Below are positions 20,212 through 38,399 of a DNA stretch of 64,000 nt, piece by piece. Under the pieces are notes generated by a model. That model saw only the letters and a program-made list of their open reading frames with translations, did no database searches and was not told the DNA's origin. The stretch is taken from positions 17,407 through 81,406 of the forward strand of contig JBHBZU010000024.1 in the NCBI GenBank assembly GCA_041797745.1, in the 5' to 3' direction. The translations under genes and the position numbers were made by a program. Position 1 is the first letter of the stretch. Every line of letters begins with the position of its first letter. Source of the stretch: Bacillota bacterium (GTDB lineage: Bacteria > Bacillota > Clostridia > Peptostreptococcales > Anaerovoracaceae).

Positions 20212-20311
20212 GTGATATAATGACCCAAGTTACATAGTCATTTCATCATATCTTCATCTATAAATTATAATCAAAGATATGATATAATGACTGCTAAGTC
20301 AGTCATTATGT
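20212..20311 (+). repeat. Intergenic repeat family, locus A (modules X-spacer-Y)
   Basis: GTGATATAATGAC-CCAAGTTACATA-GTCATTTCATCATATCTTC, then the spacer ATCTATAAATTATAATCAAA, then GATATGATATAATGACTG-CTAAGT-CAGTCATTATGT. The same modules recur at 26.8, 28.8, 30.9, 35.2 and 38.3 kb. Confidence 0.85.
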
Positions 20312-20345
20312 AAAAATATAAAATTAAAGCTAAAGGACAGTTTTC

Positions 20346-21596
20346 ATGAAAGGAACTAAGGAGAAATTCAATTATTGTGTAAGATATGTGAGGGTTTTCT
20401 GTAAATGGCTCATTATTTCATTGGTGGTGGGAGCTATTGGCGGATTTGTAGGCTCTGTCTTTCATATGGCGGTAAGATACGCCACTGATTTTAGAATGGA
20501 AAACCCGATGTTGATATACCTTTTACCCTTAGGAGGCATATTTATTGCTGCTCTTTACGGCAGTTTCAAGGTTTCCGGAAAAGGAACCAACGATGTAATA
20601 GATTCCATCCACGATGGAGGAGATGTGCCGATTCTAATGGTTCCGGCTATATTTTTTGCCACAATTATCACCCATTGTTGCGGAGGTTCAGCAGGTAGAG
20701 AGGGAGCGGCGCTTCAAATAGGCGGAGGCATAGGAGGCTTTGTAGGCAAGACTTTTAAGCTGGACGAAAAGGAACAGAGATTGGCAATACTTTGCGGCAT
20801 GAGTGCGGTATTTGCGGCACTTTTCGGAACGCCTCTTACGGCGGCACTATTTCCGCTGGAGTTTGTTAGTGTTGGAGTTATCTACTATTCCGGTTTTTTG
20901 CCATGTATCTGCGCATCCCTTACGGCTTTTGAAATTTCCATCTTTCTTGGCTTACCCCCTACAAGATTTACCATCAATGCGGAGGTTCTGACTCCGGAAC
21001 TTATTATAAAGGTGGCTGTTTTGGCGGTGGGGGCTGCTATGGTTTCGATAATCTTTTGCCTTGCGATGAATGGCGGTGAAAAGCTGGCTAAAAAGATAGA
21101 AAACAGATATTTTAGAATAATCACAGGAGGCGTAGCGGTCATACTTTTGACTCTTTTGGCAGGGAATAACTGTTACAATGGTGCAGGTGGCGATATTATC
21201 AGTGTGGCAATTCAGGCAGGCGCTTGCCCTAAAGCAGCTTTCCTTTGGAAGATAGCTTTCACTGCCCTTACCCTATGCTTCGGTTACAAAGGGGGAGAAA
21301 TTGTCCCGACTTTCTTCATTGGCGCCTGCTTTGGCTGTGTGGCGGGACCGCTTCTCAATCTACCTGCGGGATTCGCGGCAGCTATGTCGCTGGCAGGAAT
21401 GTTCTGCGGTGCGGTGAATTGTCCGATTGCGTCAATCTTCTTGGGAGTGGAGCTCTTCGGTGCAGCCAATATGCCGTATATTGCAGTAATGTGCGGGGTT
21501 TCGTATATGCTTTCGGGATATTATGGTATCTACAAGAGCCAAAAAATCATATATTCAAAGACAAATGCAGAATATATAAACAGATTTACCAAGTAG
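20346..21596 (+). CDS. ClC family voltage-gated chloride channel / H+-Cl- exchanger homologue
   Basis: 416-aa polytopic protein with the ClC selectivity-filter-like blocks GSAGREGAALQIGG and GYKGGEIVPTFFIG. Confidence 0.8.
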   Translation: MKGTKEKFNYCVRYVRVFCKWLIISLVVGAIGGFVGSVFHMAVRYATDFRMENPMLIYLLPLGGIFIAALYGSFKVSGKGTNDVIDSIHDGGDVPILMVPAIFFATIITHCCGGSAGREGAALQIGGGIGGFVGKTFKLDEKEQRLAILCGMSAVFAALFGTPLTAALFPLEFVSVGVIYYSGFLPCICASLTAFEISIFLGLPPTRFTINAEVLTPELIIKVAVLAVGAAMVSIIFCLAMNGGEKLAKKIENRYFRIITGGVAVILLTLLAGNNCYNGAGGDIISVAIQAGACPKAAFLWKIAFTALTLCFGYKGGEIVPTFFIGACFGCVAGPLLNLPAGFAAAMSLAGMFCGAVNCPIASIFLGVELFGAANMPYIAVMCGVSYMLSGYYGIYKSQKIIYSKTNAEYINRFTK

Positions 21597-21681
21597 GTTG
21601 AACTTTCAAGGTTACATAATTAAGTTGCGAGGAAGCAAATTGAATATAGGCTACAATCAGGCGGACTAAATAAAACGAAAT

Positions 21682-21864
21682 AAAACTAATCATAGATGTA
21701 TTTGTGAACCTTGCCTAAAGATGATGTTAATTAAATTCGAATGGAAGTTTTAGCGGCTCACGATTAACTAAAGGATGAACTGAATAAAACCAATCATAGC
21801 TGAATTTGTGAACCTTGCCTAAAGATGATGTTAATTAAATACAGATGGAAGTTTTAGCGGTTCG
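21682..21864 (+). repeat. Tandem direct repeat, 2 copies, 104-bp period
   Basis: The 79-nt cores at 21682-21760 and 21786-21864 differ at 8 positions by manual alignment. The flanking (G/A)GTGAACTGAA(T/A)AAAA motif also recurs. Confidence 0.9.
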
Positions 21865-21918
21865 TCTTAGCTACAAGTAAATCAGGTGAACTGAAAAAAT
21901 ATGGTATTGCATAGAAAT

Positions 21919-21947
21919 TTGCAAAATTTTATATATCAGTGTATAAT
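21919..21947 (+). promoter_or_regulatory. Probable sigma-A promoter of the NhaC-family gene
   Basis: TTGCAA (21919-21924), 17 nt, TATAAT (21942-21947). It lies downstream of the tandem repeat. Confidence 0.55.
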
Positions 21948-22035
21948 CCCTATTGCACAAAGATATTTTAATATTGATATTAAAAAAACTGATATCAGAT
22001 AAATAAAAAATAAAATAAAGGAGATAAAGTCAATT

Positions 22036-23373
22036 ATGGACAAGAAAAGTAAGGGCAACCCAATAGCCCTTTTGCCTATAGGTGTATTTTTAATCTTATA
22101 TTTGGGGTTGGGTATTCTTTTTGAATACGGAATGAAGATAGAGATGGGATTTTACAATATTCCTATCGTTGTAGTATTTCTCATTGCACTGCTGGTGGCG
22201 TGCATGCAGAACAAAAATTTAGGTTTTGACGAAAAGCTCAAAATTATGGGGACAGGAATCGGTGATAAAAATATTGTTATCATGATTTTAATTTTCCTTG
22301 AGGCAGGTATGTTTGTAGGAGTAGTGGGCAGAGGCAGTGCTCAAAGCGTAGCCTACTTCATGCTGTCCGTCATTCCTCCGCAATTTGCTGTAGCGGTGCT
22401 CTTCGTAGTAGCTTGTCTGGTATCCGTGTCAATGGGTACTTCTGTAGGAACAATTACCTTAATTACACCGATAGGAGTGGCTGTTGCTGCGACATCAGGC
22501 TTTTCCATGCCGCTTTGTATCGCTTCGGTAGTTGGTGGCGCTATGTTCGGCGACAATCTTTCTTTCATTTCAGATACAACAATAGCAGCCTGTAACGGCC
22601 AGGGTTGTGACATGAGAGACAAGTTCAAGGAAAACTTTGCCATCGCCTTGCCGGCTGCAATCGTAGCACTGATGATTATTTTGGCAGTTTCCATGTCAAA
22701 GGCTCCTGAAATGCTGTCAATACCTGAATATAATTTGATTCAGATTATCCCTTATATCGTAGTGCTTTTAGGTGGAATCATAGGAATCAACGTATTTATA
22801 GTGCTTTTAACCGGTATTCTGACCGGTGCTATGATTATGCTGGCAACAGGTGCTATTGCAGGAACTGAACTTCTTTCGAACATGGGTTCAGGTGCTACAG
22901 GTATGTTTGAAACTACCATGGTAGCTATTTTGGTATCTGCAATCTGCGCGCTCATCAGAGAACATGGCGGTATGGATGCACTGTTGAACGGTCTTTACAA
23001 TATGTTCCGCGGCAAACGCGGCGGACTTTTTGGCATGGGAGTTTTAGTAGCCCTGCTGGACATTGCAACAGCTAACAATACAGTGGCCATTGTAATGGCT
23101 AACCCTATTGCTAAAGAAATGGCGGAGTCTTATGAAATCAGCCCAAGGAGAGCGGCGTCCATTCTCGACACTTTTTCTTGTGTTGTGCAGGGGATAATTC
23201 CTTACGGTGCTCAAATGCTGGTGGCAATTTCTGCGGCGGCGGAAATGGGATATAATGTGTCTGCATTTCAGATTATTCCACTGCTGTTCTATCCTATGCT
23301 CCTGTTGGTAAGCTCTTTGATTTTCATTGTGCTTTTTCCGGACAGAGACAAAAAACATTTGGAACAGAGATAG
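22036..23373 (+). CDS. nhaC: Na+/H+ antiporter, NhaC family
   Basis: 445-aa polytopic protein whose layout and conserved blocks (GTSVGTI, FGDNLSFISDTT) fit the NhaC family. RBS is AAAGGAGA. Confidence 0.75.
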   Translation: MDKKSKGNPIALLPIGVFLILYLGLGILFEYGMKIEMGFYNIPIVVVFLIALLVACMQNKNLGFDEKLKIMGTGIGDKNIVIMILIFLEAGMFVGVVGRGSAQSVAYFMLSVIPPQFAVAVLFVVACLVSVSMGTSVGTITLITPIGVAVAATSGFSMPLCIASVVGGAMFGDNLSFISDTTIAACNGQGCDMRDKFKENFAIALPAAIVALMIILAVSMSKAPEMLSIPEYNLIQIIPYIVVLLGGIIGINVFIVLLTGILTGAMIMLATGAIAGTELLSNMGSGATGMFETTMVAILVSAICALIREHGGMDALLNGLYNMFRGKRGGLFGMGVLVALLDIATANNTVAIVMANPIAKEMAESYEISPRRAASILDTFSCVVQGIIPYGAQMLVAISAAAEMGYNVSAFQIIPLLFYPMLLLVSSLIFIVLFPDRDKKHLEQR

Positions 23374-23440
23374 AATATAGATGGAACATAGATAGTGAAA
23401 GCTTTAATATTGAAGTTTTAAATTAGATAAAGATAACCAA

Positions 23441-23500
23441 ACTCCTGAACAGGTATATGCTTAATTTTAATCATATGCAGGTTCAGGGGTTTCTATTATT
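23441..23500 (+). terminator. Probable terminator of the nhaC-family gene
   Basis: ACTCCTGAAC ... GTTCAGGGGT is a 10-bp outer stem with one G-T pair, plus inner CATAT pairing, followed by TTCTATTATT. The T tract is weak. Confidence 0.45.
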
Positions 23501-23802
23501 AGGGCATATATAATTTTTGTAAAATCCTTAGGAGAGCAAAAAAGTTGGTTTATAGGACAAAAAGTGCTATAAAAATTCAAAAATTATATATGCTATAAAA
23601 TCTTTTGTGGTACCTCCAGTTTAAGAGTGTATTACTACTATTATTATTGTTTTTACTGCTATTGTGGGGACATTTGATATTAACATAAAAAGTATGCCTC
23701 ACAGAGCTGCTTTTAATATAAATTTTATGGCTGCCGCTTTGGTACTAATTTTAAAACCACTGCCTTTAAACTAATTTGCGTACTCATTTTGTTACCGCCA
23801 CT

Positions 23803-23844
23803 TTGGCACTCAACTATTGACAGTGCTAACAAAAGTAGTATAAT
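23803..23844 (+). promoter_or_regulatory. CIRCE (HrcA operator) overlapping the htpG promoter
   Basis: TTGGCACTC-N9-CAGTGCTAA (23803-23829) has two mismatches to the consensus TTAGCACTC-N9-GAGTGCTAA. TTGACA (23817-23822), 16 nt, TATAAT (23839-23844). Confidence 0.75.
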
Positions 23845-23889
23845 TATTATGTCACAGAAAAACTAAAATATTTAGGAGGCAGGATATAA

Positions 23890-25800
23890 ATGAAAAAGAA
23901 ACAATTTAAGGCAGAATCCAAGAAACTTTTGGATATGATGATAAATTCCATCTATACTCACAAGGAGATTTTTTTAAGAGAAATTATTTCAAATGCCAGT
24001 GACGCGATGGATAAACTTTACTATCAGGAGCTTACTGAAAAAAAGACAGGACTTCACAGGGAAGATTTTAAAATTCACATTGCTGTTGATAAGGACGCGC
24101 GCACCATTACCGTTTCGGATAACGGTATCGGTATGAGCGAAGAGGAACTGGAAACCAACTTGGGAGTTATTGCCAAGAGCGGCTCCTTTGACTTTAAAAA
24201 AGACATGGCGAGCAATGAAGAAAAACCCTCTGAGGAAGATGAAATCAACATTATCGGTCAGTTCGGAGTAGGCTTTTATTCAGCCTTTATGGTAAGTGAC
24301 CAAGTAAAAGTAATTACTAAAAAATTTGGCAGTGAAGAAGCTTTTGAGTGGACTTCCGGCGGAGCAGAGGGCTATACTATTCAGCCGACTGCAAAAAACG
24401 GACACGGTACAGACGTGGTTATTCATATTAAAGAGGATACGGAAGAAGAAAAATATAGCGAATATTTGCAGCAGTACAGAATACGAAGTCTTATCAAAAA
24501 GTACTCCGACTATATTGCCTATCCTATCCTTATGAACGTTGAGACGGAAAAACCGGTAGGAGAATTTAAGGAGGGAGAGGAACCGAAGTTTGAAACTGTG
24601 GTTGAAGAGCGCACCTTAAACAGCATGGTTCCTATTTGGAAAAAGAATAAGTCCGAGCTTAAGGATGAAGACTATAACACATATTACAAAGAAAGATTTT
24701 ATGATTATAAGGACCCTGTCAGCCATATTCACACTAAGGTAGAGGGTCAGGTGTCCTATGACGCCCTTTTATTTTTACCGAGCAGAGCACCCCATGATTA
24801 TTACACTAAAGAATTTCAGAGAGGTTTAGCTCTCTACACCAATGGTGTACTGATTATGGAAAAGTGCGAGGATTTACTGCCTGAATACTTCGGATTTATG
24901 AAAGGAGTAGTGGATAGCGCAGACCTTTCACTTAATATTTCAAGAGAAATGCTCCAGCACGACAGACAGCTGAAACTCATTGAAAAAAATCTGGAAAAGA
25001 AAATTAGCGCGGAGCTTAAAAAATTACAGGACAGCCACCGCGAAAAATACATGGAATTTTTCAAGGAATTTGGGGTTCAACTGAAATTCGGCGTATATGA
25101 CAATTACGGAATGAATAAAGAAAAACTGCAAGATTTATTAGTTTATCCAACATCCTTTGATGAAAAGAAATTTTCCACGCTTAAAGAATATGTTCTTAGA
25201 ATGAATGAAGAACAGGATAAGATTTATTATGCCTGCGGAGAAACTATTGATAAGATTAAGGCGTTGCCACAGGTTGAAGCTGCTCTTGCAAAGGGATATG
25301 AAATTGTCTATATGACAGAAAATGTGGATGAATTTACAGTTCAAATGATGATGGGCTATGAGCAGAAAAATTTTGTGAACGTTTGCGGTGCTGATTTTGA
25401 CGTTTCCACAGATGAAGAAAAGGAAGCTATACGCAAGCAGAATGAGGACGCCAAAGATATCTTAAAGATTATGAAAGAGGCTTTAGGGGAAAACGTAAAT
25501 GATGTAAGGTTTACAAATAAATTAGCTAAATACCCAGTTTCTCTTGCCAGCGAGGGAGGTCTTTCCATCGAAATGGCAAAGACTTTAAACGCTATGCCTA
25601 CGGGTGAAAAAGTGAAAGCCGATTTGGTTCTTGAAATAAATGCAGACCATAAGGTCGCGGAGCGAATAAAAGAAATAGCTTCAGACGAGAAGAAACTTGG
25701 CGAATATGCTATAATATTGTATGATATGGCTAGAATTATTTCAGGATTGTCTGTTGAAGATCCTGCAAAGCTAAGCGAGCTGGTTTGCCAGCTCATGTAG
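23890..25800 (+). CDS. htpG: Molecular chaperone HtpG (Hsp90)
   Basis: 636 aa. N-terminal GHKL ATPase signature LREIISNASDAMDKL and IGQFGVGFYS. Full-length Hsp90 architecture. Confidence 0.95.
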   Translation: MKKKQFKAESKKLLDMMINSIYTHKEIFLREIISNASDAMDKLYYQELTEKKTGLHREDFKIHIAVDKDARTITVSDNGIGMSEEELETNLGVIAKSGSFDFKKDMASNEEKPSEEDEINIIGQFGVGFYSAFMVSDQVKVITKKFGSEEAFEWTSGGAEGYTIQPTAKNGHGTDVVIHIKEDTEEEKYSEYLQQYRIRSLIKKYSDYIAYPILMNVETEKPVGEFKEGEEPKFETVVEERTLNSMVPIWKKNKSELKDEDYNTYYKERFYDYKDPVSHIHTKVEGQVSYDALLFLPSRAPHDYYTKEFQRGLALYTNGVLIMEKCEDLLPEYFGFMKGVVDSADLSLNISREMLQHDRQLKLIEKNLEKKISAELKKLQDSHREKYMEFFKEFGVQLKFGVYDNYGMNKEKLQDLLVYPTSFDEKKFSTLKEYVLRMNEEQDKIYYACGETIDKIKALPQVEAALAKGYEIVYMTENVDEFTVQMMMGYEQKNFVNVCGADFDVSTDEEKEAIRKQNEDAKDILKIMKEALGENVNDVRFTNKLAKYPVSLASEGGLSIEMAKTLNAMPTGEKVKADLVLEINADHKVAERIKEIASDEKKLGEYAIILYDMARIISGLSVEDPAKLSELVCQLM

Positions 25801-25862
25801 GAGGCTGATTATAGTCGGCTGACTGTAGCCGTGGCTGGATATAACAACGCAAGGAGAACTTT

Positions 25863-26687: not shown

Positions 26688-26796
26688 TTGCCATGTGTCA
26701 AAGCAAAGACACGGCAAGGCTGAACAGGTTAAAATTGTAAATTTAGAAAATTTATATACTGTATCTTTTAGTATATAAGTAGCATAGGAAAATATA

Positions 26797-26899
26797 GTGA
26801 AATGACTTTGGGAAATGGGGTCGTTATACCATATTTACTATATTTTCATATGAAGATATGGTGAAATAGCTATACAAAATGGGGCTATTATAGCATAAG
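26797..26899 (-). repeat. Intergenic repeat family, locus F (two X modules, inverted orientation)
   Basis: The reverse complements read ATATGGTATAACGACCCCATTTCCCAAAGTCATTTCAC and CTTATGCTATAATAGCCCCATTTTGTATAGCTATTTCACCATATCTTC. These are X modules pointing the opposite way to every other locus. Confidence 0.8.
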
Positions 26900-26910
26900 T
26901 TACTGACACT

Positions 26911-26965
26911 AAAAAATAGAATCGCTGTAACCACTTATTCACAATGGTTACAGCGATTTTTATTA
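26911..26965. terminator. Bidirectional rho-independent terminator (aminotransferase / GH26 convergent pair)
   Basis: AATCGCTGTAACC (26920-26932) pairs with GGTTACAGCGATT (26946-26958), a perfect 13-bp stem. It is flanked by AAAAAATAG upstream and TTTTTATT downstream. Confidence 0.85.
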
Positions 26966-26970
26966 AGCTG

Positions 26971-28647
26971 TTATTTACTTTTGGATGTTCCTTTATCCGT
27001 ATTGTTTCCATTTTCCTGCGGTTTTCCGAGGTAATTGGCGAACACGTCCATCACTTCAATCGGGTCGCTTATGTAGTAAGACCTTGCAATATTGCCGTCG
27101 GAGTCAAAATCTGCACCGTCCCACCAAACCGCAACCTTGATTCGATTGTAACCCTTGATGTAATAGAACATATTCTTCACCCAAGAAACTTTATTGCCGC
27201 CGTAACTTGCGCTGGCAAACTCGGTAATCATAAAGGGCTGATTATAAAGGGCTGAAGCTTTGGCATATACATCGTAGAAACAGGTATTAAAGGACTGCCA
27301 TGTTTCATTTTTGTAATAGGAACCGGTGTTGTATTTTGTGAGCCCCACTACGTCTACATATTCATCTCCGGGGTAGTAACGACGCTGGTCGTTCCAGTGG
27401 TAGTCGGGATAGGATTTACCGTTGGGGTTCCACACCCATATGGTGTTGCGGTTGGCACCTTGAGCTTCAAAGACAGAGTAGATGTATCGGTAGACGCTTT
27501 TGTAAATTTCAGTGTCTCTGGAAGTATGGTAAGCGGAATAACTGCACCAGTCTCCGTTCATTTCGTTGAAAGGTCTGAAAAGTATCGGGTGACCGAAGTC
27601 TGAAATCATTTTGGCATAATCATTTAAAAATTTGTCATAGTCGCCGTTCAATATGCCGTACATCATATTGCGCCCTGAATAAGAGAGAGGCGGTTGCAGC
27701 GAAAGCTCCAGCGTACGACCCTCACTATGAGTACGTTCCAAAAGAGCCTTTTTCCGAATAAGATAAGGGTCGTCGTTTGGATGAATTTCGGTATAGTGAA
27801 GCAATATAGGGAATTTATAGCCGATTTTTTCTTCTTTATGTGAGAGGTCGCTCATGTCATATTCATATGCAGGATTAAAGGTACCCCAAAGGAGAGCCGA
27901 AGAGCTAGAGAAGCATTGCTGATAGAACTTGGCTGTTTCGGCGTTCCAGTTAGGTTTAGCAACATGATTTCCCTTTATGTCAAGTCCTTGTATTCTTGGT
28001 GTGAAGAAATAAAGGGAAGAGGGAATATCTATATATCCTCCGCATTCCGAGAAAGGCACATCGGAGGAGAAGAAAAAGTCATAAACTGTTGTGCCGGAAA
28101 CTAAAGTAACGCTGGCATAATAGTTGTTATCTTTTTCCATGCGAGCCAGCTTATTTCTCTGCCATTCTTTGATATAGGCGGTTTTACCGGCGATTGTGGT
28201 GGTGAATTGATTGGTCAGGCTGTGGTCTGTTGTGTTTTCTAAAAATTTATAGCCATAATTAAAAAAGCCTGCCGGAACGTCTATGGTGCTTTTGTAAATT
28301 TCAAGGTGACGGTGTTTATCCTCCAATACGGAGACAAGAGAACAGTGGCTCATGTCCACAGGCTGCATAGTGGTTGGAATAGTGATGGCATAGCCATGGG
28401 CACAATTCACAAATTTCAGGTTACCGTCGGGCTTCTTTTCAACCCAAAAGATTCCTTTGGCGGCAGCCTCAGTAATGCCTGCATTGGTAATGCCGTTGTA
28501 GGTGACAGTCTGCACAGTTTCGGCAGAAGTTACTTCGGAAGTGCTGTCGGCATAAGAGGCTGTTGCAAAAGTAAAATTCCAAGATAAAGCAGTAACAAGA
28601 GTTAAAGCAAAGGCAATAAACTTTTTTAAATTATTCTTTGAGTACAT
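26971..28647 (-). CDS. Secreted glycoside hydrolase, GH26-like (mannanase-type fold)
   Basis: Signal peptide (ATASYADS). The C-terminal catalytic domain has FRPFNEMNGDW and ITEFAS blocks resembling the GH26 acid/base and nucleophile regions. The ATG at 28647 (MYSKNN) follows TTGGAG and is preferred over the tracked TTG at 28659. Confidence 0.6.
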   Translation of the reverse strand: MYSKNNLKKFIAFALTLVTALSWNFTFATASYADSTSEVTSAETVQTVTYNGITNAGITEAAAKGIFWVEKKPDGNLKFVNCAHGYAITIPTTMQPVDMSHCSLVSVLEDKHRHLEIYKSTIDVPAGFFNYGYKFLENTTDHSLTNQFTTTIAGKTAYIKEWQRNKLARMEKDNNYYASVTLVSGTTVYDFFFSSDVPFSECGGYIDIPSSLYFFTPRIQGLDIKGNHVAKPNWNAETAKFYQQCFSSSSALLWGTFNPAYEYDMSDLSHKEEKIGYKFPILLHYTEIHPNDDPYLIRKKALLERTHSEGRTLELSLQPPLSYSGRNMMYGILNGDYDKFLNDYAKMISDFGHPILFRPFNEMNGDWCSYSAYHTSRDTEIYKSVYRYIYSVFEAQGANRNTIWVWNPNGKSYPDYHWNDQRRYYPGDEYVDVVGLTKYNTGSYYKNETWQSFNTCFYDVYAKASALYNQPFMITEFASASYGGNKVSWVKNMFYYIKGYNRIKVAVWWDGADFDSDGNIARSYYISDPIEVMDVFANYLGKPQENGNNTDKGTSKSK

Positions 28648-28796
28648 ATTTAGCTCCAATACAATTATAAAATATGTTAAAATCCCGAAATTTCAACATC
28701 TATAGACTTATATAAATATTAAGCTAAAAGGAATTTCCAGTCAAGAAAAATTCTGTTGCGGAAACTGCATATCTAAATTTTAAAATTATGATAAAA

Positions 28797-29016
28797 GATA
28801 TGATATAATGACTGCAAATGCAGTCATTATACAAAAATCATATAGCCGTGCGAATATTTTGCTTTCATAAACTTAAGCAAAAACGCACATGGCTGAATTA
28901 TATCATGTAAACATGATATAATGACCCCAAGTTACATAGTCATTTCATCATATCTTCCTATGTACCTTATATATTCAAAGATATGATATAATAGCCATAT
29001 AGCTAAATTAATATAC
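28797..29016 (+). repeat. Intergenic repeat family, locus B (modules Y-Z-W/X-spacer-degenerate X)
   Basis: Y is the 26-bp palindrome ATAATGACTGCA-AA-TGCAGTCATTAT (28805-28830). Z is a long hairpin (28833-28907). W is TTATATCATG-TAAA-CATGATATAA (28898-28921). An X hairpin follows to 28958, then a degenerate unit to 29016. Confidence 0.9.
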
Positions 29017-29048: not shown

Positions 29049-30854
29049 ATGAAACCGATAAACAAGCGTATCGCTGAATTAAGAAGATTGATGAATATGG
29101 AAAAGCTCGCCGCTTATGTGGTACCCACAGGCGATTACCATTCTTCTGAATATGCAGGAGAATATTTCAAGGAACGTGAATTTATTACAGGATTTACAGG
29201 GTCTGCAGGAGTTGCTGTTATAGGAAACAGCAGTGCGGGTCTTTGGACAGACGGAAGATACTTTTTGCAGGCGGAGGAAGAACTTGAGGATACCTGCATA
29301 AATCTTTTTAAAATGCGAAGACCCGGTGTATTAAAAGTTAGCGAATTTTTAGCCAAGACCCTTGGCAGCGGAGCTAGAATCGGGTTTGACGGAAAGACAA
29401 TTTCCGCAGAATTTGTTAATGAAATTGAAAATGAATTTTCTAAACTTGGAAAGTCTGTTAGCTTCATTCAAAAGAATCTGGTAAACGAGATTTGGGGAGA
29501 AAGACCGAAACTTTCTTGCGAAAAAGTCGAAGTTTATCCCGAAAATATGGCAGGGCGCAGTCGGGAAGAAAAGCTGCAAGCTTTGGAAAGGAAGCTTGAA
29601 GAGCTTCAAGTGGATACCTTTGTGCTTTCCACTTTAGACGATATAGCGTATCTTTTGAATATTCGAGGCAATGACGTGCAATGCAGTCCGATGGTACTTA
29701 GTTATTTTGTCATGGATGAGGGTGCAAAAATCCTTTTTGCACAGAAAGCAGCTTTTCACGGTACAGGTGAGGCGGCGAAAAAGTCTCTTGAAAAAGCAGG
29801 AGTAGAGCTTCGGGAATATGACGAAGTCTATGAATATCTAAAAGAAAATATTTCGGGAAAGAGCGTGGCAATAGACATCGAAAAGTCCAATTATGAGCTG
29901 GTACAGACTGTAGCTGAAGCAGAGGAAGTAGTGAATATTCATAATTACAGTCTTATTCCCAAATACATCAAAAATATAACAGAAATCGAAAATATGGTGT
30001 GTGCACACCTAAAAGACGGTGTGGCGGTAACAAAGTGGATATACTGGTTAAAACGCAAAATAAAGGAAGCTGATGGAGAAGCCCTTACTGAAATTTCAGT
30101 AGCGGAAAAACTTTATGAGTTTCGCAGTCAGCAGGAAAATTTTCGCGGGGAAAGCTTTGAAGCCATTATGGGCTACGGTCCTCACGGTGCTATTGTTCAC
30201 TATTGCGCTACGTCTCAAAGTAATGCGAAGTTGGAGCCTAAAGGCTTGCTTTTGGCAGATACGGGAGGGCAGTATTTAGAGGGCACTACGGATGTGACTC
30301 GTACCATTGCGCTGGGCTCTCTTTCAGAAGAGGAGAAAAAACATTATACAGGAGTTCTCTGCGGACATCTTGCCTTGCAGCAGGCTGTATTCAAGGAGGG
30401 TACTAGCGGTGCCGAACTGGATCAGCTGGCGCGGAAGCCCATACGGGCTCAAGGCTTGGACTTTAACCATGGAACCGGACACGGTGTGGGTGTTTATTTA
30501 AATTGTCATGAGGAGCCTGTGAGGATATCTTTTGGTATGGCTGATGACATTCCGAATTTTGCCGCAGGCATGATTACTTCCGATGAACCGGGGATATATA
30601 TTGAGGGGAAGCACGGTATCAGAATTGAAAATTTGCTGGTTTGCATGGAAGCAGAGACAGGAAAGGAGGGATACCTGAAGTTTGAGCCCTTGACCCTTAT
30701 CCCTTATGAAATTGAGGCTTTGGATTTGTCAATTATGGACAAGGATAGCCGCAGGGCATATAATGAATATCAGGCATTGGTTTATGAAAGGCTGTCACCA
30801 TATCTTAAAGCAGATGAGAAAGAGTGGCTGAAAGAAGCAACACGAAAAATTTGA
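29049..30854 (+). CDS. pepP: Xaa-Pro aminopeptidase (aminopeptidase P, M24B)
   Basis: About 600 aa with N-terminal creatinase/prolidase-type domains and a C-terminal pita-bread domain carrying the metal ligands (DTGGQY, HGTGHGVG, EPG, IRIEN). The start is either ATG 29049 or TTG 29034. Confidence 0.85.
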   Translation: MKPINKRIAELRRLMNMEKLAAYVVPTGDYHSSEYAGEYFKEREFITGFTGSAGVAVIGNSSAGLWTDGRYFLQAEEELEDTCINLFKMRRPGVLKVSEFLAKTLGSGARIGFDGKTISAEFVNEIENEFSKLGKSVSFIQKNLVNEIWGERPKLSCEKVEVYPENMAGRSREEKLQALERKLEELQVDTFVLSTLDDIAYLLNIRGNDVQCSPMVLSYFVMDEGAKILFAQKAAFHGTGEAAKKSLEKAGVELREYDEVYEYLKENISGKSVAIDIEKSNYELVQTVAEAEEVVNIHNYSLIPKYIKNITEIENMVCAHLKDGVAVTKWIYWLKRKIKEADGEALTEISVAEKLYEFRSQQENFRGESFEAIMGYGPHGAIVHYCATSQSNAKLEPKGLLLADTGGQYLEGTTDVTRTIALGSLSEEEKKHYTGVLCGHLALQQAVFKEGTSGAELDQLARKPIRAQGLDFNHGTGHGVGVYLNCHEEPVRISFGMADDIPNFAAGMITSDEPGIYIEGKHGIRIENLLVCMEAETGKEGYLKFEPLTLIPYEIEALDLSIMDKDSRRAYNEYQALVYERLSPYLKADEKEWLKEATRKI

Positions 30855-30925
30855 TGGCATAACGACCCCAATTTCACATAGTCGTTTCGCCATATCTACA
30901 TCTGTAAATTATAATCAGAGATATG
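30853..30925 (+). repeat. Intergenic repeat family, locus E (X-spacer-partial unit)
   Basis: GATGGCATAACGAC-CCCAATTTCACATA-GTCGTTTCGCCATATCTAC, then ATCTGTAAATTATAATCAGA, then GATATGGTACAAC. The pepP stop codon TGA (30852-30854) overlaps the first bases of the unit. Confidence 0.8.
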
Positions 30926-30973
30926 GTACAACTAAATAATATCAAGCAGAACAGAATTATTATGGGTGAAAAT

Positions 30974-32112: not shown

Positions 32113-32170
32113 AAGGAAAATAGCTTTTAAAACATACAAGTGAAAAGAAATTAATAATAAAAGCGAGCAA

Positions 32171-32348: not shown

Positions 32349-32726
32349 ATGGAAATAAAACAATTACCTCATAATCATGGTGCGAATACGGAAGCACTTA
32401 TTCGTGAGAGGGAAATGGCACCGGATATAACCACATTTAAAGCGGCAGCAGATACCTTTGCTTTGCTGGGAGATGCCAGCAGGCTTAAAATCTTTTGGCT
32501 TCTGTGTCATACGGAAGAATGTGTGGCAAACATAGCTGCGGCAGTTGATATGTCGGCACCGGCAGTATCACACCATTTAAAAGCCTTAAAGAATGCTAAA
32601 ATTTTGCAGAGCCGTAAAGACGGCAAAGAGGTATATTACAAATTGGCAGATACCTATGAAGCAGATTTGCTCCATAAAGCAGCGGACAGTTTTATGAATA
32701 TTAAGTGTCCAAGTGAAGTTTTATAA
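32349..32726 (+). CDS. ArsR/SmtB family metal-responsive repressor
   Basis: 125 aa. wHTH block SAPAVSHHLKALKNAKIL. Cys/His cluster LLCHTEEC in the alpha3 region. Located upstream of HMA and P1B-ATPase genes. RBS is AGGAGG. Confidence 0.8.
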   Translation: MEIKQLPHNHGANTEALIREREMAPDITTFKAAADTFALLGDASRLKIFWLLCHTEECVANIAAAVDMSAPAVSHHLKALKNAKILQSRKDGKEVYYKLADTYEADLLHKAADSFMNIKCPSEVL

Positions 32727-32834
32727 ATAAACAAGTGAGATTTTCTAAATAAAGATCTAAATAAAGATGAGGAAGTTGGGAAATACGGAACTTGTAAAAT
32801 TCCACAAGCTAAATAGAGCTTTTACAGTGTTCTT

Positions 32835-32885
32835 ATCATAATATTTTCATAATAACCTCATCTATAAATTATATAATCAAAAAGC
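32835..32885 (+). repeat. Degenerate remnant of the intergenic repeat family (locus G)
   Basis: TTTTCATAATAACCTCATCTATAAATTATATAATCAAAAAG aligns with the X 3' arm plus spacer (TTTCATCATATCTTCATCTATAAATTATAATCAAAGA). Confidence 0.5.
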
Positions 32886-32911
32886 CCAAAAAGGTAAAGG
32901 AGAGAAAGAAA

Positions 32912-33130
32912 ATGAAAAGAAGTTATAAACTGGAAAATTTGGATTGTGCCAACTGTGCGGCAAAGATGGAAAACGCAATAAATAAGTTAGAGGGCGTAAA
33001 ATGTACAGTTACTTTTATGACTGAAAAAATTACCCTTGAGGCTGAGGATGACAAATTTGAGCAGGCACTTTCAGACGCGCAGGACATTATCAGCAGGATA
33101 GAACCGGATACAAAGATAGCAAGGCGCTAG
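32912..33130 (+). CDS. Stand-alone heavy-metal-associated (HMA) domain protein
   Basis: 72 aa with metal-binding motif LDCANCAAKMENAI. It has a ferredoxin-like HMA fold of the type usually fused to Cd/Zn ATPases. Confidence 0.8.
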   Translation: MKRSYKLENLDCANCAAKMENAINKLEGVKCTVTFMTEKITLEAEDDKFEQALSDAQDIISRIEPDTKIARR

Positions 33131-33144
33131 TTTGAGGAAAACTT

Positions 33145-35163
33145 ATGACAAGAGGACAGAAAAGAGATTTAATAAAAATTTTTATATCCCTTAGTCTCAT
33201 GGTCTTTGGAATACTGACAGAAAACCTCTTTCCTACGGAAAAGCTACCCCTTGTGACAGTGGCAGGAACGGAGATAAATTTAGGGATAGCAGCTATCTAT
33301 GTGACAGCTTACTTAACAGCAGGCTTCGAAACTTTAGGGAAAGCCCTCAATGGAATCTTGAGGGGGCAGATGCTTGATGAAAATTTTCTCATGACAATCG
33401 CGTCCATAGGCGCTTTGCTTCTTCAAGATTACAAAGAGGGCGTGGCAGTAATGCTCTTTTACAATGTAGGGGAACTTTTTGAGGACTATGCTGTAAACAA
33501 ATCAAGAAAATCTATCAAAGACCTTATGGACATCAGACCGGATTATGCAAATTTATACAATGAGCAGACAGGCGAAGTCATGGAGGTGGATCCTTACGAA
33601 GTTAAAGTGGGAGATCGGATTCAGATTAAACCGGGAGAAAGAGTCCCTTTGGATGCGAAAATATTAAAGGGAAACTCCTCCGTTCAAACAGCGGCACTGA
33701 CAGGCGAGTCCGTTCCAAGAGATTTGGGCGAGGGGGATACAATACTGTCAGGCTTCATCAATATGACAGGCGTGCTTTTGGCGGAAGTACAAAAGGACTT
33801 TGAGGAGTCCACAGCCTCTAAAATTTTAGAGTTGGTGGAACAGGCGGCGGACAGCAAGGCAGGCACCGAACGCTTCATTACTAAATTTGCCAGAATATAT
33901 ACTCCATGTGTGGTTTTTGCGGCAGCAGCTCTTGCAATAATACCGTCGGTGCTTTTCGGGGAACCCTTTGGAACTTGGAGCTACAGGGCAATGGTGTTTC
34001 TGGTAATATCCTGCCCATGCGCATTGGTAATTTCCGTACCCCTCAGCTTTTTCGGCGGCATTGGCGCAGCTTCTAAAGCAGGTATTCTTGTTAAGGGCAG
34101 CAATTTTTTAGAAGTTATGAGTCAGGTGGACACTGTTGTATTTGACAAGACAGGCACTCTTACCACAGGAGAATTTAAAGTGACGGAGGTTATTCCCGCT
34201 AAATCTGGAACCGGTACGGCAATGGAAGATGGAGAGCAGCTTTTTCGAGATGAGATTATCAATCTGGCGGCACATGCAGAATGTTTCTCACCTCATCCCA
34301 TTGCAGCTTCCATTCGCGCTGCCTACGGCAAGGAAATTCCTCAAGAAAAGCTTCGTGAGGTGGAAGATATTGCAGGTTACGGCATTCGTGCCAAAGTTAT
34401 CTCCGACAGCGATACTTTGAGAATGGCGGAAAGACAGGTATTAGTCGGCAATTTGAGATTTATGAGACAGCAGACTGATTTAATTTCCAAAGCAGCGGAG
34501 GAAGCTACCGCGGAAGCAGAAAAATCGGGAGTTACGGGCACACTGGTATATGTTGCGGTTGACGGGAAATATAGGGGACTTATTGTCATAGGTGACGAGT
34601 TGAAACGGGATACCGCCTATGCAATCAACGGACTTTTAGGAATGGGAATAGACAATATAGTCATGCTTACAGGCGACAGGCGAAAGAATGCGGAAAAGCT
34701 TGCAGGTCTTGTGGGAATCAAGGCTGAAAACGTTTACGCAGAGCTTCTCCCCGCAGATAAACTTTCAAAGGTTGAAGAAATTATTGAAAGAGGAAAAATA
34801 AACAAGGCAAACCATGCTTTAGTTTATGTGGGAGACGGCTTAAACGATGCGCCTGTGCTTGCAAGGGCAGATGTGGGCATTGCCATGGGGAGTTTAGGTT
34901 CAGACGCAGCTATAGACGCGGCAGACGCAGTTATTATGACGGATGAGCCATCGAAACTGTTGACTCTTTTTGCTATTTCTAAAAAAACTTTAGGCATTGC
35001 AAAGGAAAATATAGCATTTGCACTAATTATAAAGTTTCTTGTGTTAGCTCTGGGGGCTGTGGGCTTGGCAGGAATGTGGGCGGCAGTTTTTGCTGATGTA
35101 GGAGTGTCTATGTTGGCAATATTAAATTCTATGCGAACTTTGAATCTGAGAGATATGGTCTAA
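33145..35163 (+). CDS. cadA: Heavy-metal translocating P1B-type ATPase (Cd/Zn/Co type), lacking an N-terminal HMA domain
   Basis: Motifs: CPC in TM6 (VISCPCALVIS), DKTGTLT phosphorylation site, TGES-like LTGESVP, GDGLNDAP hinge. The last codons and the stop lie inside repeat unit X1 of locus C. Confidence 0.9.
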   Translation: MTRGQKRDLIKIFISLSLMVFGILTENLFPTEKLPLVTVAGTEINLGIAAIYVTAYLTAGFETLGKALNGILRGQMLDENFLMTIASIGALLLQDYKEGVAVMLFYNVGELFEDYAVNKSRKSIKDLMDIRPDYANLYNEQTGEVMEVDPYEVKVGDRIQIKPGERVPLDAKILKGNSSVQTAALTGESVPRDLGEGDTILSGFINMTGVLLAEVQKDFEESTASKILELVEQAADSKAGTERFITKFARIYTPCVVFAAAALAIIPSVLFGEPFGTWSYRAMVFLVISCPCALVISVPLSFFGGIGAASKAGILVKGSNFLEVMSQVDTVVFDKTGTLTTGEFKVTEVIPAKSGTGTAMEDGEQLFRDEIINLAAHAECFSPHPIAASIRAAYGKEIPQEKLREVEDIAGYGIRAKVISDSDTLRMAERQVLVGNLRFMRQQTDLISKAAEEATAEAEKSGVTGTLVYVAVDGKYRGLIVIGDELKRDTAYAINGLLGMGIDNIVMLTGDRRKNAEKLAGLVGIKAENVYAELLPADKLSKVEEIIERGKINKANHALVYVGDGLNDAPVLARADVGIAMGSLGSDAAIDAADAVIMTDEPSKLLTLFAISKKTLGIAKENIAFALIIKFLVLALGAVGLAGMWAAVFADVGVSMLAILNSMRTLNLRDMV

Positions 35164-35425
35164 TGACCCCATTTTGCATAGTCATTTCACCATATCTTCA
35201 TTTGAAAATTATGATGGGAGATATGGTATAATAACTCCAAGTTGCATAGCTATTTCACCATATCTTCCTCTGTAAAATATACAATAAAAGATATGGTCTA
35301 ATGAATGCAAAAGCAGTCATTAGACCAAAATCATATAGCTGTGCGAATATTTTGCTTCGTAAACTTCGGCAAAATCGCACATGGCTGAATTAGACCATGT
35401 AAACAAGGTCTAATAACCCAAACAA
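35152..35425 (+). repeat. Intergenic repeat family, locus C (X-spacer-X-spacer-Y-Z-W-partial X)
   Basis: X1 35152-35199, X2 35220-35268, Y 35290-35326, Z 35327-35399, W 35390-35413, then a truncated X that runs into the RBS of the next gene. This locus uses the GGTCTAAT variant in place of GATATAAT in all its modules. Confidence 0.9.
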
Positions 35426-35444
35426 TGACAGGAGGGCGAAGAAT

Positions 35445-38222
35445 ATCGGTAACATAACTATAGGCATTCTTGCTCATGTAGATGCAGGAAAAACAACTTT
35501 ATCAGAGGCTATTCTTTATCAGACAGGTACCATCCGAAAGGCAGGGAGAGTTGACCATAAAGACGCCTTTCTCGATACGAATTTTATTGAGCGTGCCAGG
35601 GGAATTACAGTATTCTCCAAGGAGGCTCGTTTTGTATTGGGGAAAAAGCAATTTACTCTAATTGATACCCCGGGTCATGCGGATTTTTCCACCGAGATGG
35701 AGAGAACCCTTTCGGTAATGGACTATGCCATTTTAGTTATAAGCGGTTCAGAGGGGATTCAGAGCCATACTATGACGCTGTGGAAGCTGTTTGAGAGCTA
35801 CAAGCTTCCCGTATTTATTTTTGTGAATAAGATGGATAAGGGAGAAATAGATATTCAAATGCTTAAACATCAGATGAATGTTTCACTGGGTGGAGGTCTC
35901 GTTCAAATGAGAGGGGCGGAACCTGAAGATATGGAAGAACTGGCAATACATTCGGAAAGAATGCTGGAGGAGTTTTTAGAAACAGGTTCTGTTCGGGATG
36001 AGCTGATTCAAGAGGAGATTTTGAACAGACAAATTTTTACGGTTTCCTATGGTTCAGCTCTTAAAATGGAGGGTATAGAAGAATTCCTAAAGGTGATGGA
36101 GCGTTACACCGACGAAACTTTGTGGGAAGAAGAACAAGATAGGGATGAGAAATATTCAGAAAAAAATCATTCGGAAAAAAACACATCAACAGACAAGGTC
36201 TTAGATAAGCAGGGTGTTATAGGAAAAGTATATAAGATTACAAGGGACAAAACAGGAAACCGGCAAACTCATTTAAAAGTGCTTTCCGGTATTCTTAAAA
36301 ATAAAATGCTTCTTAAGGGAAAAACTTCAGGTGGCGAAACTTGGGAAGAAAAGGCAGAACAAATCAGGCTTTACAACAGCACGGGTTTTGAAGCCTTGGG
36401 AGAAGCTAAGGCAGGCATGATAGTAGCAGTAACAGGCTTATCACAGACCTTTGCAGGAGCGTATATAGGTACTGAAGCGGCGGATGTGGATGAAAGTAAG
36501 CCTTTTCTACAGCCTGCACTAACCTACAGAGTAAATTTCGAGGGTGGAGTTGACCTCAAAATCGGTTTCAGTAAGCTTAAGCTTTTAGAAGAGGAACATC
36601 CGTCCTACCATTTTCTTTGGGGTGAAGAACATTGTGAAATTCACGTTCAGGTAATGGGAGACATGGAACTTGAAGTGTTAAAAGCAATCATTAAAGAAAG
36701 GTTCGATTGGGATACCAACTTTGACAAGGGCAGTATTCTTTACAAGGAAACTGTTGCAAAGGCGGTTATCGGCATAGGACACTATGAACCGCTTCGACAC
36801 TATGCTGAAGTTCAGTTGCTTTTGGAGCCGCTCCCTGCAGGAAGCGGTTTAGAATGTGGCTCGTTAATCAGTGAAGACCGTCTTGCAAAGAATTGGCAAC
36901 GTTTGATTCTTACCCACCTTATGGAAAAGTCTCATAGAGGAACTTTAACCAATTCGGAAATCACCGACTTACGTATCAGCATTGTGGCAGGTAAAGCCAG
37001 CAATAAGCATACCGAGGGAGGAGATTTCAGAAAGGCTACTTATACAGCCATAAGACAGGGTTTGCGAAAGCTGCTTGAATCGGGCGACATGGTGCTATTG
37101 GAACCAATTTACAGTTTTTCCATAGAAATTGACAACCAATATCTTGGTAGAGTAATGACAGATATGGAACGCTTGGGGGCGAAGTGCAAAATGCCTGAAC
37201 TTATGGATGACGGCGTTACAGGTGTAATTCGGGGAACGGGACCTGTGGCTACCCTTAGAGACTATCAGAGAGAAATCAATACTTTCGCTCGCGGTAGCGG
37301 AAGATTCGTAGCAACTTTGGACGGTTATGCGCCTTGTCACAACCAAGAGGAAGTGGTGACTGCCATTGGTTATGACCCTGACAGCGATTCTCGCAACAGA
37401 GCAGGTTCGGTGTTTTGCGAACAGGGGGCAGGGGTTTATGTAGACTGGCAGGAAGTTGATGAGCTGGCGCAGGCTGAAAATGATTACATTCTCGGAGAGG
37501 ATGGCGATGTAAGACAGCTTGCGGGTGAAGAAAAAATTGCTTTAGCCTTAAAAACCTCAGGAGGAGAGGTGACTGCCAAGGAACTGGAGGAGATTTTCCA
37601 ACGGACTTACGGAAAGTCCAAGAGGGATGAGCAACTGATGAAAGAAAGAAAATCTCGGAGTTCAAGGCTAAAATCCGGAGAAATAGAAAACTTTCCTATG
37701 CCAAAGTGGCGTAAAGATGATAAGAAAAGTTCCAATGTGAAATCAAAGGAAGAACTCTTGGTGATAGACGGTTACAATGTAATCTTTGCGTGGGAAGAAT
37801 TAAAAGCTTTGGCAAAGGAAAATATCGACTCCGCAAGAGAAGCCCTTATTGAAATTGTCAGAAATTATTCGGGAGCTGAGGCTTTGCCTGCGGTTTTGGT
37901 GTTTGACGGATATAAGTTGGCGGACAATATCGGAAGCAGCCAAAGCTTTGAAAAGGTGACGGTAGTGTATACTAAAGAGGGAGAAACGGCAGACACCTAT
38001 ATTGAAAAGAAAATCTATCAGGAGGGCAGTTCTAAAACGATAACTGTGGTAACCTCCGATAAACTTGTGCAGATGATGGCGTCGGGAGATGGAGCCATAA
38101 GACTTTCTTCACGAGAATTTCTTGAAGAAGTTCAAAATTCCGTAGGAAAGATTAGAAACAGACTTTCAAATCAAAAATTACCCTCGAATAAACCGCTGGA
38201 GAGTAAATTTGAAAAGTCCTGA
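35445..38222 (+). CDS. TetM/EF-G-like translational GTPase fused to a C-terminal Rae1/YacP-type NYN ribonuclease domain (start codon uncertain)
   Basis: The frame is open from 35403. G1 AHVDAGKTT (35472-35498) lies upstream of the tracked TTG at 35637. G3 DTPGH, G4 NKMD, G5 GSALK. Ribosomal-protection/EF-G-like domains II-V (GHYEPLRHYAEV, LLEPIYSFSIEI). A K/R/E-rich linker, then LLVIDGYNVIFAW ... VVYTKEGETADTYIEK ... VVTSDKLVQ, which matches B. subtilis YacP/Rae1 blocks. GGAGG at 35431-35435 lies 9 nt before an in-frame ATC at 35445. No ATG, GTG or TTG exists in frame before 35637. Confidence 0.75.
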   Translation: MGNITIGILAHVDAGKTTLSEAILYQTGTIRKAGRVDHKDAFLDTNFIERARGITVFSKEARFVLGKKQFTLIDTPGHADFSTEMERTLSVMDYAILVISGSEGIQSHTMTLWKLFESYKLPVFIFVNKMDKGEIDIQMLKHQMNVSLGGGLVQMRGAEPEDMEELAIHSERMLEEFLETGSVRDELIQEEILNRQIFTVSYGSALKMEGIEEFLKVMERYTDETLWEEEQDRDEKYSEKNHSEKNTSTDKVLDKQGVIGKVYKITRDKTGNRQTHLKVLSGILKNKMLLKGKTSGGETWEEKAEQIRLYNSTGFEALGEAKAGMIVAVTGLSQTFAGAYIGTEAADVDESKPFLQPALTYRVNFEGGVDLKIGFSKLKLLEEEHPSYHFLWGEEHCEIHVQVMGDMELEVLKAIIKERFDWDTNFDKGSILYKETVAKAVIGIGHYEPLRHYAEVQLLLEPLPAGSGLECGSLISEDRLAKNWQRLILTHLMEKSHRGTLTNSEITDLRISIVAGKASNKHTEGGDFRKATYTAIRQGLRKLLESGDMVLLEPIYSFSIEIDNQYLGRVMTDMERLGAKCKMPELMDDGVTGVIRGTGPVATLRDYQREINTFARGSGRFVATLDGYAPCHNQEEVVTAIGYDPDSDSRNRAGSVFCEQGAGVYVDWQEVDELAQAENDYILGEDGDVRQLAGEEKIALALKTSGGEVTAKELEEIFQRTYGKSKRDEQLMKERKSRSSRLKSGEIENFPMPKWRKDDKKSSNVKSKEELLVIDGYNVIFAWEELKALAKENIDSAREALIEIVRNYSGAEALPAVLVFDGYKLADNIGSSQSFEKVTVVYTKEGETADTYIEKKIYQEGSSKTITVVTSDKLVQMMASGDGAIRLSSREFLEEVQNSVGKIRNRLSNQKLPSNKPLESKFEKS

Positions 38223-38253
38223 TTTTTCAGATTTTATTCGGAAATTTGGGCGA

Positions 38254-38399
38254 AATGTGATATAATGACCCCAAGCAGTCAGTATATAAAATCATATAGC
38301 CGTGGGAATATTTTGCTTTTGTAAACTTCAGCAAAATCGCACATGGCTGAATTATATCATGTTTACATGATATAATAACTGCATAGTTTACTGATAAAA
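38254..38399 (+). repeat. Intergenic repeat family, locus D (degenerate Y-Z-W-partial X)
   Basis: Z 38288-38361. W is TTATATCATG-TTTA-CATGATATAA (38352-38375). A truncated X follows and ends at the RBS of the next gene. Confidence 0.9.

Follow-up and report, generated by a model that had tools for sequence, protein, structure and literature searches.

Seven intergenic loci in a 64,000-nt stretch of DNA from a Bacillota bacterium of the Anaerovoracaceae (assembly GCA_041797745.1, contig JBHBZU010000024.1; this whole stretch is called the window below) were found to be built from the same ordered modules: a hairpin (X), an AT-rich spacer, a palindrome (Y), a second hairpin (Z), and a further palindrome (W). 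The loci lie between 20.2 and 38.4 kb of the window, their hairpins carry compensatory changes, one arm of each unit matches a promoter consensus, the arms within a locus change in concert, and syntenic relatives lack the repeat altogether. We hold with moderate confidence that the modules make up a lineage-specific, non-coding palindromic repeat family of the REP (repetitive extragenic palindrome), BIME (bacterial interspersed mosaic element), or BOX kind. In this family, a palindrome with a one-way promoter would have been copied locally and would also fold in read-through RNA.

In every one of the seven loci the modules are collinear with part of a single master order, X-spacer-X-spacer-Y-Z-W-left arm. 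The unit period is ∼68 nt, and every unit opens with a left arm, GATATGRTATAATGAC, of the form (GA)TRTGnTATAAT-GAC. In X this arm is followed by a loop of 11–14 nt (CCCCA...CATA) and a right arm, GTCATTTCRYCATATC, which is the complement of the left arm save two fixed mismatches; the stem thus formed has 16 bp with a fixed 2x2 internal loop, in which AT stands opposite TC. Y consists of a left arm and its perfect complement (12–13-bp stem, 4-nt loop), and Z is a stem-loop of ∼53 nt with a sequence unrelated to the other modules. W, with an 11-bp stem, is an inverted left arm that abuts the left arm of the next X, so that the W and X pairings are mutually exclusive. The spacer is AT-rich and comes in two or three types, all of which end in ATCAAAG or similar. 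A minimal open reading frame in the left arm, where ATG-NNN-TAA is kept in 12 of the 16 arms, was considered and rejected, because TRTGnTATAAT explains this pattern equally well and the purine run is too near the ATG for a ribosome-binding site. The loci and their modules are as follows.

Locus A, 20209–20311, + strand: X-spacer-Y, upstream of a CLC channel gene (ATG 20346).
Modules of locus A, + strand: X 20209–20256, spacer 20257–20275, Y 20276–20310.
Locus F, 26750–26900, - strand: inverted, in the convergent gap between an aminotransferase gene (+) and a GH26 gene (-).
Modules of locus F, - strand: X 26850–26899, spacer, second X 26786–26837, spacer, decayed left arm at ∼26750–26770.
Locus B, 28758–29016, + strand: in the divergent gap between GH26 (-) and pepP (+, ATG 29049).
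Modules of locus B, first half, + strand: remnant right arm and spacer 28758–28796, Y 28797–28832, Z 28843–28895.
Modules of locus B, second half, + strand: W 28897–28922, X 28910–28958, spacer, terminal left arm 28980–28995.
Locus E, 30852–30935, + strand: fills the pepP-ackA gap; X 30852–30901, spacer, decayed left arm GATATGGTACAAC 30920–30932.
Locus G, 32837–32880, + strand: remnant with a decayed right arm and spacer, upstream of the HMA and cadA genes.
Locus C, 35152–35425, + strand: the fullest copy, with the near-complete master order.
Modules of locus C, first half, + strand: X1 35152–35200, spacer, X2 35220–35268, spacer.
Modules of locus C, second half, + strand: Y 35290–35326, Z 35336–35387, W 35389–35414, terminal left arm.
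Locus D, 38254–38399, + strand: upstream of an RNase J-like gene (ATG 38417).
Modules of locus D, + strand: X left arm fused to Y right arm, Z 38297–38349, W 38351–38376, terminal left arm.

Locus F corresponds to the first part of the master order, inverted, and lies beyond a strong bidirectional GH26 terminator (26920–26958). In locus B, W and X have a left arm in common. Locus G is 84% identical to locus A over 37 nt. The fusion of the X left arm to the Y right arm in locus D looks like an internal deletion, and the W of this locus is the exact reverse complement of the W of locus B (inverted match I8), which means that the loop has been flipped. Two loci overlap the stop codon of the gene upstream: the pepP stop codon TGA (30852–30854) lies in the first X arm of locus E, and the cadA stop codon TAA (35161–35163) lies in X1 of locus C.

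Reading of the loci and a whole-window repeat search, which grouped the seven loci through families D1–D5 and D7 and recovered locus F as the inverted matches I1–I5, agreed with the original prediction, made from the DNA letters alone, in placing seven loci within 20212–38399. The predicted shapes of X, Y, Z, and W were confirmed as well, as was the overlap of loci E and C with the pepP and cadA stop codons, in both cases in the first arm. Two of the predicted loci needed amendment. Locus F had rightly been described as an inverted double X, but its span is ∼26750–26900 and takes in, at its end, a third left arm that has decayed; for locus B the module set was correct, but the upstream remnant from ∼28758 had been missed.

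The clustering of the family was pronounced. With up to 3 mismatches allowed, the core of the X right arm (ATAGYYRTTTCRYCATATCT) matched 8 times, always between 20234 and 35265, against 0.06 matches expected from dinucleotide shuffles. An nhmmer profile of seven X units recovered 7 strong copies in the window (E 1e-15 to 5e-20) and none outside 20.2–38.4 kb. A covariance model of the unit, run with filters off over all 64 kb, gave no further copy below E = 1; its matches were the known copies, their palindromic mirror matches, and a remnant at 28768–28802. The predicted lack of copies in the rest of the window was therefore borne out by pattern, profile, and unfiltered covariance-model searches alike. 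Same-species contigs added 3.3 kb of flank on the left and 7.7 kb on the right (75 kb in total), and no repeat copy was found in this extra flank. All copies in the 75 kb of sequence fall in a single 18-kb stretch, as direct tandem units. A copy is present in 7 out of the 11 intergenic gaps of at least 40 bp located between 20 and 38.5 kb, versus 0 out of 23 elsewhere (Fisher p = 6e-5). A transposase or RAYT domain is encoded neither in the window, as had been predicted, nor in the 11 kb of flank.

The 20-nt X core had 30 single matches in 185,579 species genomes, a collection to which the host species possibly does not belong; these were in unrelated taxa, none was confirmed by the X profile, and their number is about that expected by chance (estimated by hand from the degeneracy of the pattern and the 596 billion bases scanned). 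A two-arm pattern had one match in JGI metagenomes, a chance match inside a coding region, and none in viral contigs. There was also no match for the Z pattern in viral contigs, nor, by blastn against plasmids and phages, for loci B and C and a related unit from a phage contig (L061, see below).

The hairpins are backed by compensatory changes. In an alignment of eight X units, 86.6% of the stem cells are paired and both sides have changed in 6 of the 14 pairs; none of 500 shuffles reached this level of pairing, which dropped to 20–51% when the partner was slid by 1–3 columns. Compensated pairs include GAT/ATC to GGT/ACC, and TGAC/GTCA to both TAGC/GCTA and CGAC/GTCG. The X stem is equalled in support by an inter-unit stem formed by a right arm and the next left arm (91.5% paired, with 6 out of 12 pairs compensated, for the window units plus units from three other sources, L056, L057, and L061), and W has 2 compensated pairs. 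Equal support for both stems is to be expected when all arms of a locus have one variant in common. In locus C, five arms of both senses carry a variant (GGTCTAAT/ATTAGACC, with TCTAAT/TTAGAC) that occurs nowhere else, so that the arms of a locus change in concert. When folded, single X units on the + strand reach -5 to -16 kcal/mol (z -1.8 to -5.5), Y reaches -16 kcal/mol (z -6.6), and Z -18 kcal/mol (z -3.2). For the whole of loci C and B these values are -94.5 (z -7.8) and -67.9 kcal/mol (z -6.9), respectively.

The fixed mismatches of the X right arm bear on the reading of the left arm as a promoter element. Sigma factors need the A at position -11 of a -10 box, and the mismatches turn the mirror image of the box into TGAAAT, without this A; the box is thus kept in one direction only. 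As had been predicted, the left arm carries an extended -10 box: it is an exact TRTGnTATAAT, which is the extended -10 (‘-16 region’) consensus of Gram-positive promoters (PMC5036317). Exact matches to TRTGNTATAAT number 9 in the window versus 0.45 expected, and six of these are in the repeats. The other three (15640, 25705, and 53171) are at ordinary promoter positions, indicating that the organism uses this signal; two of them had been listed in the original prediction, in which the one at 25705 was overlooked. In loci A, B, C, D, E, and G, the last -10-like box is located 30–57 nt upstream of the next start codon. For instance, 57 nt separate the TATAAT in Y of locus A (20283–20288) from the CLC start codon, the terminal TATAAT of locus B (28987–28992) is 56 nt short of the pepP start codon, and that of locus D (38369–38374) is 42 nt from the RNase J-like start codon. 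Both by position and by sequence, these boxes have the features of a sigma-A extended -10 element, and we regard them as putative promoters. Of the neighbouring genes, htpG has a perfect TTGACA-16-TATAAT promoter at 23817–23844, 46 nt upstream of the gene, in a 516-bp gap that holds no member of the repeat family.

We then considered whether the repeat corresponds to a described family. At the gathering threshold, no Rfam family matched anywhere in the window. A permissive Rfam search returned RF02952 (dfrA-dnaX RNA; model of 76 nt, gathering threshold of 48.6 bits) over its full length (model 1–76) at 20220–20288 in locus A with 39.9 bits, and in locus C at 35166–35232 and 35234–35302 with 36.3 and 36.1 bits. 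The structure of the family is present, with an 8-bp stem uCAUAauU/AauUAUGa, a loop of ∼26 nt with AUCAAAA, and flanking AUUUCA and UAUAAU. The RF02952 model runs from immediately behind one TATAAT up to the following one, and its consensus ...AUUUCAuCAUAauU-ACC...AUCAAAAaGgA-auUAUGaUAUAAU aligns with the X right arm, the spacer, and the next left arm. An identical 11-mer, ATTTCAYCATA, occurs in both and includes the two mismatches; TATGrTATAAT and the spacer motif ATCAAA are common to them as well. The Rfam model does not cover the X loop or modules Y, Z, and W. These correspondences make homology with RF02952 likely, and the window repeat is probably an amplified, diverged relative of it. 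The statement in the original prediction that the repeat could not be assigned to a described family is therefore only partly right. Formal membership fails, since the best score of 39.9 bits is below the RF02952 threshold, but the matches are full-length, and the repeat is better described as a probable distant relative of RF02952 with additional modules.

A pattern built from the parts common to RF02952 and the window identified three related units in viral contigs; with a spacer-anchored pattern, 36 loci were obtained in viral contigs, 33 of which are conserved phage coding sequence. L056 and L057 score above the RF02952 threshold (65.8 and 65.3 bits). L057 is from Parvimonas sp. KA00067 (Tissierellia), the sole confirmed member with a named host, and has its TATAAT 11 nt upstream of an AAGGAG ribosome-binding site. 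L056 (1–1035) contains five RF02952 units, in both orientations, within ∼350 nt, and these occupy one gap between genes, unlike the window copies with their seven separate gaps. L056 is very AT-rich (22% GC at the motif), its units are located upstream of an aspartase/fumarase-like gene, and TATGATATATCATA, a perfect palindrome similar to module W of the window, joins neighbouring units. In L061, a Caudoviricetes contig, lysis genes are separated from a helix-turn-helix gene by a full X-spacer-left arm. Across these sources the outer stem pairs covary (CATATCT/AGATATG, CATAATT/AATTATG, CATATTT/AAATATG, and CATATCC/GGATATG). When a profile of the window units uses sequence alone, L057 and L061 are matched at no better than E ∼0.05, in a database that was itself selected by pattern. 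RF02952 is reported to be among the candidate motifs of Weinberg et al. 2017; the main text of that study (PMC5737381) does not mention the motif, and a search of the available papers found none naming ‘dfrA-dnaX’ or ‘RF02952’.

The host is an uncultured gut bacterium that resembles Lachnospiraceae. The genes around the loci belong to its core chromosome (htpG, pepP, ackA, cadA, a gene for an EF-G/NYN fusion, RNase J, tig, clpP, clpX, and lon). Nineteen same-species contigs are 99.97–100% identical to the window and hence too clonal to show insertion polymorphism, and the nearest pepP homologue outside the species has 56% identity, with named matches in Lachnospiraceae or Firmicutes metagenome-assembled genomes. 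Three syntenic relatives, L042, L095, and L096/97 (52–56% pepP identity), keep much of the gene order of the window and have the same genes, without any copy of the repeat. In L042 the order is aminotransferase, GH26, P-type ATPase, HMA, pepP, ackA, and then ArsR, ATPase, EF-G/NYN, and RNase J, with intergenic gaps of 9–20 nt. Since these relatives have no copies, the repeats were gained in the host lineage. This also answers a caveat of the original prediction, in which it was noted that the modules might be conserved regulatory DNA placed identically in all relatives.

The loci are found at gene junctions that include rearrangement points, and the HMA-cadA block is bounded by loci G and C. 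GH26 (26971–28647) is on the - strand in the window and on the + strand in L042 (5782–7458), and loci F and B, themselves mutually inverted, flank the segment that has been turned around. This arrangement suggests that the inversion arose via recombination between repeat copies. GH26 of L095 is also on the - strand, yet without repeats. In addition, Logan contigs from several independent assemblies of the species (L004, L040, and L041) end inside repeat loci, at 28963–28971, 32862, and 35370. The break around 28967 is accounted for by a 32-nt stretch common to loci A and B. The in-window shared runs at 32862 and 35370 are shorter than 31 nt and offer no explanation from within the window; these breaks could reflect further genomic copies or strain variation.

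Taken together, we picture the family as a repeat whose copies would have arisen in one core-gene interval after another. At each locus, the final left arm may then act as a sigma-A promoter for the next gene, and the complementary arms would form stable stem-loops in read-through RNA or in single-stranded DNA, with the stem-loops perhaps serving as 3'-end barriers or processing sites. In this way, promoters and hairpins would split a gene string that is tightly packed in relatives into separate transcription units. The repeat would spread without an enzyme of its own, through slippage in the 68-nt register together with gene conversion or ectopic recombination among copies close to one another.

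Several observations weigh against this favoured reading. In four of the five locus C arms, the -11 A has changed to C with pairing kept; such a change is expected to kill a -10 box, and here the hairpin seems to be conserved more than the promoter. The boxes of locus F, located beyond the strong terminator, point antisense into the 3' end of the aminotransferase gene, and a sigma-70 scan requiring a -35 box revealed no enrichment (48 sites versus 43.5 expected). The co-orientation of the copies with genes could also be inherited through local duplication. As for a role in RNA, the X hairpin lacks a U-tract on the + strand, and in 6/6 copies X folds better as - strand RNA than on the gene-sense strand, because the A·C mismatch of the + strand becomes G·U on the - strand. 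This strand bias poorly suits a sense-RNA role and may fit a DNA-level palindrome or a by-product of the crippled mirror box. Furthermore, whether the left arm is active as a promoter, what the RNA hairpins do, and how the repeat spreads are inferred here from sequence, and a view limited to 75 kb does not establish that spread has been local only.

The chief rival to a locally copied repeat is a REP- or REPIN-like element whose hairpins travel as single-stranded DNA, mobilised by a Y1/HUH enzyme (RAYT or an IS200/IS605-type TnpA) with its gene in another part of the genome, in which case the window would be a dense patch of a dispersed family and the promoter-like arm would be incidental. Such an element would account for the imperfect palindromes, whose conserved internal mismatch tells the strands apart as in REP units, for modular clusters that resemble BIMEs, and for the Logan contigs that end in repeat loci. 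The patchy distribution of related units over Parvimonas, an AT-rich organism, and a phage contig is also what one would expect from it. A Y1/HUH gene is however absent from the 75 kb, as is the typical GTAG-type head from the units, which form direct tandems and not inverted doublets. Moreover, every copy in view falls within one 18-kb stretch, and the scan of 185,579 genomes for the core stayed at chance level, with the proviso on the host species given above. On balance, we consider this explanation unlikely.

The full-length RF02952 matches raise the question of whether the units are, as filed by Rfam (as an sRNA), a structured RNA. The units would then be transcribed, and the inter-unit or X stem would be the functional part, perhaps with a role in processing or stabilisation or that of a small RNA. 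In line with this, the folding z-scores are strongly negative and the Rfam stem is compensated across distant taxa (outer two pairs GA/TC, AT/AT, AA/TT, and GG/CC), but the matches score below the family threshold and both pairing registers are equally supported, as in any palindromic DNA repeat. With the RF02952 model ending exactly at TATAAT, the motif must be missing from any RNA that starts at that promoter. With no terminator after any unit, the better fold of the - strand in all six X copies, and flanking genes that have no function in common, a structured RNA appears distinctly improbable to us. We rate as very improbable indeed that the palindromes are operator sites of one DNA-binding regulator that define a local regulon. 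A palindrome overlapping a promoter box is a classic operator layout, and copies lie upstream of six genes, but the arms vary with compensation (GAT/ATC versus GGT/ACC; TGAC versus TAGC versus CGAC), showing that pairing is kept and not a fixed recognition sequence for a protein. The distance between arms differs among modules (4–14 nt), the genes are unrelated in function, and the sites are absent from relatives that carry these genes. Locus F, in addition, is located at two gene ends.

Other candidates were also set aside. In a CRISPR array the repeats would be constant; here it is the ‘spacers’ that are conserved and the repeats that vary. Integron cassettes were rejected because the arms have no attC cores (GTTRRRY), there is no integrase, and the gene order is conserved with L042. 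Intrinsic terminators, which have a GC-rich stem, a loop of 3–8 nt, and a U-tract directly behind it, do not fit the 11–14-nt loop of X and its lack of a U-tract on the + strand, and a terminator scan flagged only Y of locus B, on the - strand. A riboswitch or leader is at variance with the unrelated flanking genes and with copies both 5' and 3' of genes. A Frpo-type single-stranded-DNA promoter was discarded by reasoning only, as so short a stem would offer RNA polymerase no downstream duplex.

Returning to the reading of a locally copied promoter palindrome, a bolder version of it can be formulated, which we put forward tentatively and consider doubtful as a whole. RF02952-type units in general would be a portable one-way promoter palindrome, made of an extended -10 box and its crippled mirror image, and not a small RNA, able to move between Firmicute lineages and phages. 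In the present Lachnospiraceae lineage such a unit would have multiplied locally together with the added Y, Z, and W, split an ancestral, tightly packed gene string into separate transcription units, and seeded at least one inversion (GH26, loci F/B), with arms changing in concert by self-templated repair. If true, an orphan Rfam motif would gain a concrete reading as an amplifiable, DNA-level promoter palindrome instead of a small RNA, and a short repeat would have rewired the transcription of housekeeping genes via promoters and hairpins between genes that are kept tight in relatives. The stakes are moderate, as intergenic repeats like REP, BOX, and Correia are a well-known kind of element. 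Annotators and metagenome assemblers should be aware that such loci break contigs and can supply stop codons (cadA and pepP) or false start codons (ackA).

The latter point concerns gene calls next to the loci. ackA is called from ATG 30923, inside a repeat GATATG; the 357-aa protein of a relative suggests that the true start is ATG ∼30975 and that the one inside the repeat is false. For the EF-G/NYN fusion gene the called start is TTG 35637 (861 aa), with the frame open from 35403. A GTPase P-loop (GILAHVDAGKTT) that matches the N-terminus of the relative is encoded upstream of this TTG, and the start is probably a non-canonical ATC at ∼35445, 8 nt after AGGAGGG. Unrelated to the hairpin family are two tandem copies of ∼86 nt at 21674–21863 (90% identical, 104 nt from start to start) in a 439-bp intergenic region that precedes a Na+/H+ antiporter gene (PF03553, ATG 22036). 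These had no Rfam match even at permissive E-values and could be a tandem cis-regulatory RNA.

Finally, we compared the window repeat with known intergenic repeats. The BOX elements of Streptococcus pneumoniae follow the scheme boxA-boxB(n)-boxC, are present in more than 100 copies genome-wide without a mobilising enzyme of their own, and have reported effects on the expression of neighbouring genes. Judged from this general description and not from sequence, they resemble the window repeat in their ordered modules, variable number of middle units, stable stem-loops, and intergenic position in a low-GC Firmicute; they differ in that their modules are not built around a promoter box and in being dispersed over the whole genome, whereas the window repeat is seen in one 18-kb stretch, and kinship in sequence is not expected. 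The REP/BIME sequences of enterobacteria, which are able to stabilise upstream mRNA, and REPINs share with it the imperfect palindromes with conserved mismatches and the mosaic clusters between genes. In contrast to REP and REPINs, the window repeat has no GTAG-type head, is arranged in direct tandem and not inverted, and carries a promoter consensus in one arm; REPINs are moreover paired with a RAYT, which is lacking from the 75 kb. In the original prediction the family had been likened to REP/BIME, BOX, or MITE (miniature inverted-repeat transposable element) sequences. We retain the REP/BIME/BOX kind with a promoter-like core but not the MITE sense, given that terminal inverted repeats with target-site duplications were not seen. 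A strict MITE was rejected because the composite loci begin and end with the same left arm in direct orientation, and inspection by eye of the borders of loci A, B, C, D, and E showed no target-site duplication. The Correia elements of Neisseria (NEMIS/CREE) are MITEs of 100–155 bp that are bounded by terminal inverted repeats of 26 bp, duplicate a TA target, and are dispersed in hundreds of copies, all features that were not seen in the window repeat. Like it, they are short, hairpin-forming palindromic intergenic repeats with promoter boxes; these boxes are functional in Correia, and the hairpins are processed in read-through transcripts. By this analogy, Correia elements would be the best functional counterpart of the promoter-plus-hairpin cassette described here.

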